A program made the translations under genes and the position numbers. Shown here in pieces: positions 26,937 through 31,634 of a stretch of 64,000 nt of DNA. Source of the stretch: Rickettsiales bacterium. GTDB taxonomy: Bacteria; Pseudomonadota; Alphaproteobacteria; Rs-D84. The stretch is from the NCBI GenBank assembly GCA_031288835.1, contig JAITQO010000016.1:8167-72166 (forward strand). The letters are read 5' to 3'. How positions within the stretch are numbered: the first letter of the stretch is position 1; each line of letters begins with the position of its first letter. The notes under the pieces are model-generated. The model worked only from the letters and a program-made list of their open reading frames with translations, was not told the DNA's origin and searched no databases.

Positions 26937-29900
26937 ATGGCGGTTTTCAACAATGAACAAATTGAGGGGCTGCGGGTTTTGCCGGACGGAAATCCCGCCG
27001 CGGAGCAGGTCGCGCAAAAAATGCGCGGGATTGTGAAGCGGCTGTTGTCCTCCATTGATGGGGAATACGACTTGAACAACTTCGAATTCCTGGTTATAGA
27101 CAGAGAAAATCCGAACGCGTTCTACGTCGCGCCGAAAAACACCAACAACGGGCATGATGTTGTCGGGATTACAAGCGGGATGGTTCCGTTCTGCAAATCC
27201 GAGGACGAATTCGCGGGCATCATCGCGCACGAATTGGGGCATTTCAAATATGACAAAATCTATGGCGGCGGAAACACGTTGTTTCAGGAACGCGCCAGCG
27301 ACCTGCATGCCTTGCAATTAATGCTGGACGGCGGATACGACCCGGCGGCATACCGCGATGCGGCGGGACGGATGTCTTCGATGAAGGACAGTGCGCTGCT
27401 GTCGATTTTGAATGTGCTGGACGTTCACGGCAGCCCCTTCGCCCGCCGCGAAGACATAGACAGGGGACTGACAATGCTGAGGAAAAGCCGCGGCGGATTT
27501 CCGCGCGCGGATACGAAAGACTGGCCGGCGTTTCAGAAAACCTTTGCCGAATCTTTCAAGGATAATCGGTTTCAGAGCTATTTGGACAAAATTATCGCGT
27601 CGCGCGCGGGCGGCGCCGGAGATGCCGAACATATTCTGGAAATCCTTGCCGTCGAACTGGAATCCGGCCATATCGATACCGTTCCGCGCGCGAATGATTT
27701 GATTATGAAATTGGGCGATTTGTTCGCTGCGCGGCCGCTTTCCGAATCGGCGATGCGGAAAACGCAAAGGCTGGCCGAAGATATTTTTTATGAAGACGCC
27801 GCATTACCGGAAGGCATCTATCATGCGAGCGCGGAAATCAGGCATGGCACGCTGGAAAGAATCATCGACCTGCGCGGGGCGCGTTTGGACTTGTTCGGAA
27901 AGTTTTTTGAAATCGCGGAGGACATGCGGGCTTTTATCGATGCGGAAAATGCCGAACAGGCGGCCGTTGTCGCGAAGATATATAGGGGCTCCGAACCGGG
28001 TTATTTTAACCAATATCGATTTGTGTTCAATTTTCCGAAATTCGAAATGCCGGCCGAAAAAAACGCCGTCGGAAAGCCGCTGCCGTATAAAAAACATATG
28101 GAATGGTCGCGTAAAAATCAGGATATACGGTATTTTCTAAGGTATGTATGGAATGCTTTAGGTTGGGAGGACAAAGAGGACTTGGGGCTGGATGGTAGTT
28201 TTATCAGCCTGAAATATCCGGATTCAGAATATGCCCATGCCGATAGATATGACTTTGCCGCCGATGACGACGGAATCATCGCCACGGTCGGGCATGCTGC
28301 TGCGGAAGAGTTCAAAAGAACCAAATACCGGCGTCGCGCGCGTCTGGAGAAAATCCGCAACAACAGCGAAAGGTTGGGGAAAAAAATTGAAGCATTGAAC
28401 ATATTGTCAGACTTTGACCAAGGCAAAGTCAGCGTTGAAGACCCGGTTGGAGACGTCGTAAGGATTTCCTTGGCAATGCGTCTAGACGAATACCGCGACA
28501 GGAGAACCTTCAATCGGTCGGTTTTTTCCGATGGCTACGAGGTGATAGAAGACAACCCGAACGACAAAGAGGACTGGGAGGCATTGAGAAAATCACGCGG
28601 GTTCCGGCTGCTGTCCGAATCGTCCGGACTGCAGGACAAAGTCGCCGCATATCAGGACAGAATCACGCAGGGAGACATGATGAAGGCCCTGCTGTCGCCG
28701 GCGGTCAATTTGGAGTTTCTTCAGAACGCATCGGATATAATTCTCCGGATGATTCGGGAATTAAAATGTGTTCCCGAGCGTGTCTTTAGAAATTTTTATA
28801 ACGCCGTGGATGAAATAGAGGTTTCGAACCTGTCCTTTTCCGCCCCTATGGACAGCAGGCTGGAAGCAGAAATCGAGAAAGCATTCAAGGAAAAACAGAG
28901 CGCGGTTTTGAAGAAACTGACTATAGAGTCCGCCGACATCATGGAGCCGGCCGAATGGTTCGATGTATTTAAATACCGGGGCCTGTCGAATGTCGGGGAT
29001 GATAATCCGCTGAATCCTTTGGTGGATATCCAGCTGGCCAAGGCGGGGCTGTTTGCGACGGACGAAGAAACGTTTTACAAAATCCTGCTTGATACTGGGG
29101 ACAAGTTCGGCAATATCGCGACGGCGCGGTATATGTATAAATATCTTGCGGACGGACACCCTGTTACGGACATAGCAAGATTTCTGCAATACGCGCCGAA
29201 TTCGCATGGGGAAGGTTTCCTGAAGAACGCGCTTTACGACTATGCCGCCGCGCGCAGTTTGATGCCGGAAGACGAATTTGAGAAAATGCTCGACGTGTAT
29301 ATTCGCATGGAGCACGGCGACTGGCTGGTGGAATCGAAATCGCAACAATCGCGGATGCTGGACAAACTGGTCGATAAAATCCTACGCATGCCGCGCGCGA
29401 AACGGGAAAAATACTCTCTGATGCTGCTGACCGGCGATTACGGGGATGAGAATCTGAACCGCGTGGACAAGTCGCTGCGGCTGCCGGAACAGAAAAACGC
29501 GCTGATTGACATTTTTACGGACGCGATGTTCGAAAAAATCGGGCGCGACGACAATTCGGATGCGTATCTGGCGTGCGTCCAGGAATATATCGTCCAAATA
29601 AATAAAGATGTGAAATTCATAAGACCTTTCAGTTCAGATAATCTGCGTCCTCGGGTCGCCATGGCGGACCGCGCCCGGCTGTTCCGCATTTTGTCCGATA
29701 AAATCGTGTCGCAGGAACGGCTGTCGCGTGTCTTGGAATCCGAAAAGACGGTTCGCATAGGCGACCGCGATTTGCAGGACAACGACAAAAAAGGGCGCAT
29801 ATTTCAGGAAATTCTGCGCCTGATGGAACACGACAGCAAGAATGTGGACGCGGTGATGCGGTTCTTGAACCGTCGTTTGTCGGACGAATCAATCCGACAG

Positions 29901-31634: not shown

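Follow-up and report, generated by a model that had tools for sequence, protein, structure and literature searches.

What might a bacterium gain from one soluble protein that carries a zinc peptidase at one end and a kinase-like domain at the other? The question is raised by a gene in a 64,000-nucleotide stretch (hereafter the window) of a Rickettsiales bacterium of the Rs-D84 lineage (GenBank assembly GCA_031288835.1, contig JAITQO010000016.1, positions 8,167 to 72,166 of the forward strand), in which a single uninterrupted ATG-to-stop open reading frame (ORF) of 1565 codons encodes what we call here the giant protein. A first-pass annotation, made from the DNA letters and a list of ORFs, described the product as a soluble fusion of an M48-type peptidase with an ABC1/UbiB-type atypical kinase, found this architecture unfamiliar and raised secretion as a speculative possibility. 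We regard the architecture and the assignment of both families as almost certain. The protein joins an M48 peptidase, a long helical solenoid and a divergent protein-kinase-like (PKL) domain of the UbiB superfamily, and it may act as an exported effector in or on a partner cell, be it host or prey.

Domain architecture of the giant protein

The N-terminus was expected to hold an M48-like core, and this proved correct. Pfam Peptidase_M48 (PF01435) matches amino acids (aa) 26-106 with 34.6 bits against a gathering cut-off of 20.3, and relatives of the protein score 26-50 bits. A family profile built from 58 full-length members retrieved 3C37 (E 8e-21) and BepA (E 3e-14) from the PDB, and its alignment to them falls into two blocks, which take in the HExxH helix, the Glu helix (ExxAD) and HPxxxxR. 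Between the HExxH and Glu helices ~35-40 residues are deleted throughout the family. QERASD of the giant protein aligns with the ExxAD motif of 3C37 and BepA, and DVHGSPFARR with their THPlxxxR. The AlphaFold model of aa 1-800 has a predicted local distance difference test score (pLDDT) of 83.3, reaching 90-98 over aa 1-150, and Foldseek placed 3C37 first among its PDB matches (E 8e-4; template-modelling score on the target, TM(target), 0.57), with BepA also found (E 6e-3). Residue counts, here and in Table 1, refer to the best 150 of the 641 cluster representatives described below, 106 of which carry M48 and 113 of which are long. The M48 domain is present in 103 of the 113 long representatives and its H-E-H-E zinc site is intact in 102. 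Judged by these motifs, the N-terminal domain is a complete and presumably active soluble M48 peptidase of the BepA/3C37 type.

The C-terminal part had been assigned to ABC1/UbiB, and here the fold and family stood while the match to the canonical domain did not. Pfam ABC1 (PF03109) gave no match at E<=1 for the query or six relatives; the best-scoring relative reached 21.7 bits, below the gathering cut-off of 22.9, and a precomputed PF03109 match exists on one 54%-identical fragment. Single-sequence phmmer against the PDB returned nothing for the kinase half, and the full-length family profile missed COQ8A in the PDB. The AlphaFold model of aa 790-1565 (pLDDT 86.9, predicted template-modelling score 0.87) retrieved only UbiB-family proteins at Foldseek ranks 1-12, all of them MSMEG_1954, COQ8A/ADCK3 or Rv3197 (E 7.7e-7 to 1e-4, TM(target) <=0.57), followed by Rio kinases at E > 1e-3. 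Comparison of the family alignment with E. coli UbiB by hhalign gave 96.1% probability (E 3e-9, 271 columns). NCBIfam TIGR01982 (UbiB) matched aa 1094-1342 (E 2.4e-11) with 42.9 bits against an equivalog cut-off of 487.6, and the single tblastn match in plasmids was the annotated ubiB of Legionella adelaidensis (E 2e-5). Five independent tests agree on the relationship to UbiB. Profile support was thus obtained for the peptidase from Peptidase_M48 and for the kinase-like domain from TIGR01982, and not from Pfam ABC1. Because neither the PF03109 gathering cut-off nor the TIGR01982 equivalog cut-off is reached, the domain is a divergent sister or sub-family of UbiB and not a UbiB orthologue.

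Alignment with E. coli UbiB is collinear over all motifs: KFGQ is shared, and LGAGS corresponds to ASAS, MVLSMLRP to VVIKVIRP, DIDRHQGQ to HADMHPGN and FDTG to IDCG. Two canonical residues are replaced. The beta3 Lys is S1200 in the window protein, where R1203 is conserved, and position 1200 varies across the 150 representatives (S35 A35 R18 G13 K13 Q12). The loop Asn is a Gln in 128 and an Asn in the remaining 22 at position 1340. These replacements, together with the silence of Pfam ABC1, speak for a pseudokinase, that is, for a dead UbiB-derived binding or regulatory module that would leave the protein an M48 protease with a large targeting scaffold. We consider this unlikely. K1121, Q1124, E1248 (the alphaC Glu), D1333 (149/150), D1335 (150/150), H1337 (150/150) and D1357 are each kept in 147-150 of the 150 representatives, which argues for conserved chemistry rather than decay; at ~25-45% identity such near-invariance (K1121, Q1124, E1248, D1335, H1337 and D1357) would be unusual for a dead site. 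Moreover, the beta3 Lys (13 members) and the loop Asn (22 members) persist but never occur together, most members having neither. This exclusivity hints at alternative active-site solutions and suggests a site that was rewired rather than abandoned. SelO and SidJ are atypical PKL enzymes that catalyze with non-canonical sites. From the conserved positions, then, the active site appears strongly conserved yet rewired and marks a divergent branch of the UbiB superfamily. The pseudokinase question is independent of the question of where in or outside the cell the protein works.

A helical stretch of ~900 aa had been proposed between the two domains, and both AlphaFold models bear it out, as residues ~186-1090 are all-helical. 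Foldseek found weak generic alpha-solenoid matches of the karyopherin/HEAT-like kind for the solenoid and no specific fold. Conservation is low up to ~aa 790 and rises thereafter; the alignments of most homologues begin there and run on through a pre-domain whose near-invariant residues include F797, G869, D871, Q926, F1018, W1019 and R1026. This pre-domain packs against the kinase-like core, and together they form a C-terminal module of ~700 aa.

The start codon is credible because the N-terminus aligns residue for residue with those of homologues, and an AAAGGG ribosome-binding site lies 5' of it. The promoter-like sites in Table 1 are consensus matches and no proof of function. All motif strings quoted in the first-pass annotation were recovered in the 1565-aa ORF where it had placed them, and its view of a soluble protein held as well: no transmembrane helix or signal peptide was found in the 1565 residues, the maximum 19-residue Kyte-Doolittle hydropathy being 1.13. 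An assembly artefact, whether a chimera or a sequencing error that fused two genes, is extremely improbable. The source is a metagenome-type assembly, and we found no other support for this explanation; the same collinear architecture recurs in ~100 independent representatives and in 68 genome loci from many studies, the GC content of the gene is continuous with its flanks and the identical protein is present on two contigs. The family-wide collinearity led us to reject the artefact. With such a length, profile E-values as low as 1e-21 and homologues in 641 clusters, the ORF is far beyond chance.

Table 1. Features of the giant gene, its product, its surroundings and selected relatives (positions in the window unless a locus is named; AF2, AlphaFold model; A1, family alignment)
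Feature	Position	Strand	Residues (aa)	Basis
Complete ORF, giant M48-solenoid-UbiB-like protein	26937..31634	+	1565	Start backed by N-terminal homologue alignment
Promoter-like site TTTATA-17-TATAAT, TG extended -10, 24 nt 5' of ATG	26885..26913	+		Consensus scan only
Divergent promoter-like site for HxlR gene	26865-26837	-		Consensus scan only
HxlR-type regulator, divergent from giant gene	26402..26776	-	124	Pfam HxlR E 3.8e-28
Soluble M48 zinc-metallopeptidase domain, BepA/3C37-type	26994..27491	+	~20-185	Pfam, family profile, Foldseek
NAFYVAP		+	60-66	String check
IIAHELGHF		+	95-103	String check
HELGH zinc-binding/catalytic motif	27228..27242	+	H98, E99, H102	105/106 M48-bearing representatives; invariant in A1
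QERASD, third zinc ligand E118 and D122, equals M48 ExxAD	27285..27302	+	E118, D122	E118 105/106, D122 100/106
DVHGSPFARR, equals M48 C-terminal HPxxxxR	27420..27449	+	H164, R170	H164 102/106, R170 93/106
All-alpha solenoid, poorly conserved	27492..29303	+	~186-789	AF2 pLDDT 83.3; low column conservation in A1
Conserved helical pre-domain	29304..30215	+	790-1093	AF2 aa 790-1565, one body with kinase-like core
Divergent UbiB/ABC1-type PKL domain	30216..31376	+	~1094-1480	Foldseek, hhalign, TIGR01982, tblastn
GPAWIKFGQLLS		+	1116-1127	String check
KFGQ, UbiB-specific KxGQ lid motif	30297..30308	+	K1121, Q1124	K and Q 147/150; aligns with KFGQ of E. coli UbiB
LKDN		+	1143-1146	String check
GAGSF		+	1179-1183	String check
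Nucleotide-binding loop GAGS and beta3 strand MVLSMLRP	30471..30548	+	G1179, S1182	Aligned to UbiB VVIKVIRP
Catalytic loop DIDRHQGQ; D1335 is the catalytic Asp of UbiB HADMHPGN, Q1340 stands for the metal-binding Asn	30933..30956	+	1333-1340	Alignment; string check
FDTG, DFG-equivalent with metal-binding Asp D1357	31002..31013	+	1356-1359	149/150; UbiB counterpart IDCG; string check
Conserved C-terminal motif ILGIKRKYIK, clade consensus [IL]LG[IVL]x[KR]K[YH]I[KD]	31536..31565	+		Tails of closest homologous loci
Basic C-terminal tail AAPEANRMPLRPRAGKEII, disordered, candidate signal for secretion or membrane binding	31575..31631	+	1547-1565	pLDDT < 50; string check
TrbI/VirB10 gene at window edge	62872-63999	-	787 in full assembly	Cluster with VirB9 and VirB8 at L074:14132-18733
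Locus of P0147	L071:217-8322			GC of L071 0.40
Locus of the P0131/P0142/P0109 group	L072:10001-15451

A family with exchangeable N-terminal domains

The architecture is not unique to the window. Of 1.84 billion representatives of 50%-identity clusters, searched exhaustively with phmmer, 641 matched aa 366-1565 at E<=1e-3, 184 of them at E<=1e-30. Most are proteins of 1,400-2,700 aa that match at their C-terminus, and we see in them a family of giant modular enzymes of ~1,500-2,000 aa. NCBI names the nearest relatives (from an Alphaproteobacteria bacterium and a Rickettsiales bacterium) simply "M48 family metalloprotease", and the literature library that was searched yielded no publication on the family or on a fusion of M48 with UbiB. 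The family is thus large but uncharacterized. What is new is the M48-UbiB architecture and the UbiB sub-branch; both catalytic folds were already known. Other searches were less productive. A word-indexed homologue search returned the query alone for the full protein, the query and five unrelated M48-WD40 proteins for the family alignment, and short fragments only for the PKL core, though true homologues are in the collection and have up to 85 five-residue words in common with the query. Nor did any locus emerge when genomes were scanned with the protein alone.

An alignment-based scan with a single peptide pattern across one genome per GTDB species (~185,000) located 68 loci. Their hosts are gut and rumen alphaproteobacterial metagenome-assembled genomes (MAGs; Ca. 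Enterousia, RUG and RGIG bins), "Rickettsiales" MAGs, Micavibrio, the Bdellovibrionaceae, Bacteriovoracaceae and Pseudobdellovibrionaceae of the Bdellovibrionota, a Myxococcaceae MAG and a few others. Two copies were found in several of the MAGs; tandem copies occur in Enterousia, and there are dispersed paralogues too. Divergence is fast, with 25-45% identity between related MAGs. Neither viral contigs nor plasmid DNA yielded relatives. With no match to plasmid DNA, no viral-contig relatives and a GC content like that of the flanks, a mobile-element, plasmid or phage origin was rejected, as was a defense system, PADLOC giving no match for the giant protein.

The PKL module is found behind other N-terminal domains as well. 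In P0077 (2,701 aa) and P0147 (2,671 aa) it lies C-terminal to a SidE-type phosphodiesterase (SidE_PDE, PF12252; E 1.6e-31 and 1.3e-26) and ankyrin repeats, and in P0131, P0142 and P0109 (~1,800 aa) it follows a different domain with conserved Cys/His motifs (CxEHACLAL ... GHTFLxINR ... FDSW), possibly a Cys/His hydrolase. In the subclade with these domains the kinase-like module carries a literal YDFG at the D1357 position and GSAS in the nucleotide loop, where the window protein has LGAGSF and UbiB ASASIAQ; position and character are the same and the sequences differ. The gene of P0131 has ankyrin-repeat genes and orphan ORFs around it, P0137 has added EF-hands and P0073 a degenerate M48 site. 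PDB searches with P0077 and P0131 gave ankyrin matches only, or nothing. Swapping of an N-terminal warhead in this manner is typical of translocated effectors.

Two further features bear on export. Some 12 representatives nearest the Bdellovibrionota loci begin with classical Sec signal peptides with AXA sites. The basic C-terminal tail that the first-pass annotation had pointed out is present and disordered, and basic tails turned out to be a family trait. The last 66 aa of the window protein hold 15 K+R versus 8 D+E; family-wide, the last 25 aa have a mean net charge of +2.3 versus -0.47 for internal windows, and 46% of tails versus 9% of internal windows reach a net charge >= +3. A positive, disordered tail is compatible with a translocation signal but not specific to one. 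The ILGIKRKYIK motif was modelled with moderate confidence against the domain body.

Proposed roles: exported effector or membrane housekeeping enzyme

We favor an exported effector that acts in or on a host or prey cell, at a probability of roughly 0.5. This reading is based on the warhead swapping that pairs the same PKL module with SidE_PDE and ankyrin repeats or with the Cys/His domain, on the combination of Sec signals in predators, basic tails and paralogue expansion, and on the restriction to partner-dependent lineages together with a type IV secretion system (T4SS) in the genome. The lack of a conserved operon partner was also counted in its support. As to the T4SS, the VirB10-like gene noticed earlier at the window edge is indeed TrbI/VirB10, and just beyond the window in the same assembly it is followed by CagX/VirB9 (479 aa) and VirB8 (228 aa), with polA and an ABC exporter directly adjacent. 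The cluster is a chromosomal, rvh-like T4SS arrangement and not a conjugative element; the contig ends beside VirB8-10 without showing VirD4 or VirB4/11.

In the window organism, export would proceed through this chromosomal VirB-type T4SS via the basic disordered C-terminal tail, and in the Bdellovibrionota relatives through Sec. Inside the partner cell the solenoid would hold stretches of the target that are extended or unfolded, and the M48 domain would cut them. The PKL module would direct the protease to a membrane or a hydrophobic substrate, or gate it there. In UbiB-family proteins such as COQ8A the KxGQ lid occludes the peptide groove, and these proteins behave more like ATPases stimulated by lipids than like protein kinases. 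Because a lid of this type would block the peptide-substrate groove, the PKL module is less likely to be a conventional protein kinase; it would more probably serve as a ligand-sensing switch, as a nucleotide-dependent ATPase or as a kinase of lipids or small molecules. A bolder proposal, which we make only tentatively and hold to be rather doubtful, is that the C-terminal module is a new UbiB-superfamily branch which parasites, predators and intracellular symbionts have recruited and now deliver as an effector domain. Usually it would come with a protease warhead (M48 or the Cys/His domain) and sometimes with a SidE-type phosphodiesterase and ankyrin repeats; in host or prey it would use ATP on a lipid or other non-protein substrate, or carry out a non-canonical transfer with its rewired active site, alongside proteolysis.

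Several points weigh against an exported effector. The support for secretion is indirect. A distance of 31 kb separates the T4SS genes from the giant gene, no linkage of such genes to the family is seen in the other loci, and Micavibrio and Bdellovibrio are not known to have T4SSs, hence no single secretion route would serve the whole family. Both parent families, UbiB and M48, are normally housekeeping. The SidE_PDE/ankyrin relatives form a different subclade, and the loss of the beta3 Lys together with the Asn-to-Gln exchange could mean that the PKL domain does not use ATP in the clade of the window protein. Finally, lpxK/lpxC-like neighbors in ~12 Enterousia-like loci suggest vertical inheritance of a core gene.

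Some of these points lead to the main rival, a cytoplasmic peripheral-membrane enzyme of quality control or lipid handling, which we regard as possible but improbable. Here the UbiB-like ATPase would work on the inner side of the producer's own membrane, engaging membrane proteins or lipids of a hydrophobic or prenyl kind, and M48 would degrade extracted or misfolded clients, as a soluble fused counterpart of the pairs UbiB and HtpX/Oma1 or ABC1K and PGM48. Signal peptides are missing from the window protein and from its close relatives, membrane homeostasis is the classic task of UbiB proteins as well as of M48 proteases, and the gene is retained in genomes of <1 Mb. The lpxK/lpxC-like neighbors of the ~12 loci fit such a role, as does the position of the giant gene in the window just downstream of plsX and olsB/olsA-like lipid genes. 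ABC1K kinases and the M48 protease PGM48 (sll1280) co-reside on plastoglobules and cyanoglobules (PMC8956952; PMC12223511), so that the fusion could be a Rosetta-stone record of that pairing. On the other hand, the protein shows neither a transmembrane helix nor any evident anchor in the membrane, Sec signal peptides occur in some relatives and others exchange M48 for SidE_PDE and ankyrin repeats. Multiple and tandem paralogues in MAGs and the fast divergence likewise sit badly with housekeeping, and all 68 loci of the pattern scan belong to partner-dependent or uncultured lineages. The <1 Mb genomes of Ca. Enterousia/Rs-D84 are devoid of respiratory chains and of many biosynthetic pathways, and their bearers were proposed to be obligate symbionts or parasites (PMC12306168). 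Without quinone-dependent respiration in these hosts, a coenzyme-Q role of the UbiB-like domain is excluded in the Rs-D84 lineage. Signs of a quinone or prenyl-lipid role were also missing at the locus, with no ubi genes near it within the window and no transmembrane anchor.

Whichever side of the membrane the giant protein works on, it concerns a long-standing open question, the biochemical job of UbiB/COQ8/ABC1K proteins, which are ancient and disease-linked and have no agreed substrate. The family offers a naturally soluble UbiB relative with confident structural models, and with it a new handle on the PKL fold; this relative is tied covalently to a protease, in organisms reported to lack respiratory chains. 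By analogy, the fusion of two co-resident enzyme families hints at a functional partnership, and if this is true, recurrent protease-UbiB fusion would be a Rosetta-stone sign of UbiB-M48 cooperation in mitochondria and plastoglobules. In ecological terms, a gene of ~5 kb is here kept in <1 Mb genomes, often in several copies, and shared by gut alphaproteobacterial parasites, Micavibrio and Bdellovibrionota; this makes it a strong candidate for one of the core tools of bacterial parasitism or predation. Public annotation ("M48 family metalloprotease") and Pfam both overlook half of the protein.

Genomic surroundings and comparison with known systems

The window is chromosomal, and its divergent HxlR gene was confirmed. 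Promoter-like sites for both genes are present, but just 2 of the 68 related loci have an HxlR gene within a distance of 10 kb, so that regulation of the giant gene by HxlR may at most be a local possibility. Upstream of this pair, positions 22884-25849 (+) encode plsX, then an N-acyl amino-acid synthase (OlsB/FeeM-like GNAT) and then an OlsA-like lyso-lipid acyltransferase, a set that points to putative ornithine- or aminolipid synthesis; an OlsB homologue of 56% identity is found near the giant-gene homologue in locus L003. Convergent with the giant gene is a 978-aa protein at 31962-34898 (-) whose only recognizable part is a trypsin-like serine-protease segment at aa ~662-775 (Pfam Trypsin E 1.7e-13), the other ~850 aa being unassigned. 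It has weak PADLOC similarity to LmuA/Avs1b protease regions and no homologue in related loci. A Pom-family porin (Protochlamydia outer membrane protein, E 3e-12) follows at 35347-36879 (+), and an MltB gene comes after these two. Synteny of HxlR, the 978-aa protein, Pom, MltB, OlsA/B, PlsX and TrbI was seen in none of the 68 related loci. De novo clustering of neighbors revealed clade-level synteny only, namely the lpxK/lpxC-like genes of ~12 loci (by reading of ORF sequences). As there are no conserved neighbors beyond these, the giant gene behaves as a stand-alone unit, and toxin-immunity and operon models were dropped for want of a conserved operon partner.

Farther away, an autotransporter beta-domain is encoded at 6-959 (+), and large orphan ORFs lie at 21027-22637, 40072-41757 and 54319-57492. 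The last of these (+) encodes a 1057-aa protein that has no Pfam or PADLOC match; a 41%-identical homologue (L006:10813-12435) sits a few kb from the giant-gene homologue in one related MAG. At 41457-46415 (+), a 1652-aa repeat protein combines six Ephrin_rec_like with four Flg_new (Listeria-Bacteroides) repeats in an architecture of eukaryote-like or surface-adhesin type. Its ORF overlaps the 561-aa ORF at 40072-41757 (-) by ~300 nt, and its true start is probably further downstream. Positions ~7048-18153 form an apparent mobile or defense island of low GC (0.37-0.42) with an 871-aa AAA/ABC-type ATPase (PADLOC Ppl E 6e-25), a serine recombinase, a ParB-N6/N4 methylase fusion, a type II restriction enzyme (E 9e-141) and a C5 cytosine methylase. 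To judge from its genes, the window looks like that of a host-associated bacterium rich in lineage-specific proteins.

Among characterized effectors, the giant protein recalls the SidE family, SidJ and LegK of Legionella: it is giant and multidomain, has no Sec signal, ends in a basic disordered C-terminus and is encoded in a genome with a T4SS, and its relatives pair the same PKL module with a SidE-type phosphodiesterase and ankyrin repeats. It differs in having no sequence relationship to them, in the T4SS being VirB-type and not Dot/Icm, and in that its translocation is only predicted. A survey of the Legionella pan-kinome lists ABC1/UbiB solely as a non-effector housekeeping kinase, and none of the novel kinase families discussed there corresponds to the giant family (PMC9758233).

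A second parallel is offered by ABC1K and PGM48 (sll1280) of plastoglobules and cyanoglobules and by mitochondrial COQ8 and OMA1, where the same two enzyme families share one prenyl-lipid-rich compartment. There the partners are individual proteins, bound to membranes or droplets in systems that photosynthesize or respire, whereas here both activities would reside in one soluble polypeptide of non-photosynthetic, partly non-respiring bacteria; functional coupling of ABC1K and M48 is only inferred in either case.

The peptidase half resembles BepA (YfgC), LoiP/YcaL and the Geobacter protein Q74D82 (PDB 3C37) in its HExxH, downstream Glu ligand and HPxxxxR-like motif, in its fold matches and in the order of M48 followed by helical repeats (BepA being M48 plus tetratricopeptide repeats, TPR). 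In contrast to these periplasmic proteins, the giant protein has no signal peptide or lipobox, lacks the ~35-40 residues between the zinc helices, extends the helical part to ~900 aa from the ~200-aa TPR of BepA-type enzymes and adds a kinase-like domain.

The kinase-like half finds its best structural matches in UbiB/COQ8 (ADCK3)/ABC1K, Rv3197 and MSMEG_1954. They share the PKL fold and, in collinear order, KxGQ in an N-terminal helical extension, a nucleotide loop of similar small-residue character (A/G/S) though different sequence, an RP after beta3, the catalytic Asp-x-His-x-Gly loop and the DFG-type Asp. Unlike UbiB, the giant protein has Ser for the beta3 Lys and Gln for the loop Asn, has no transmembrane segment, carries an extra conserved helical domain of ~300 aa ahead of the PKL core and is fused to a protease.

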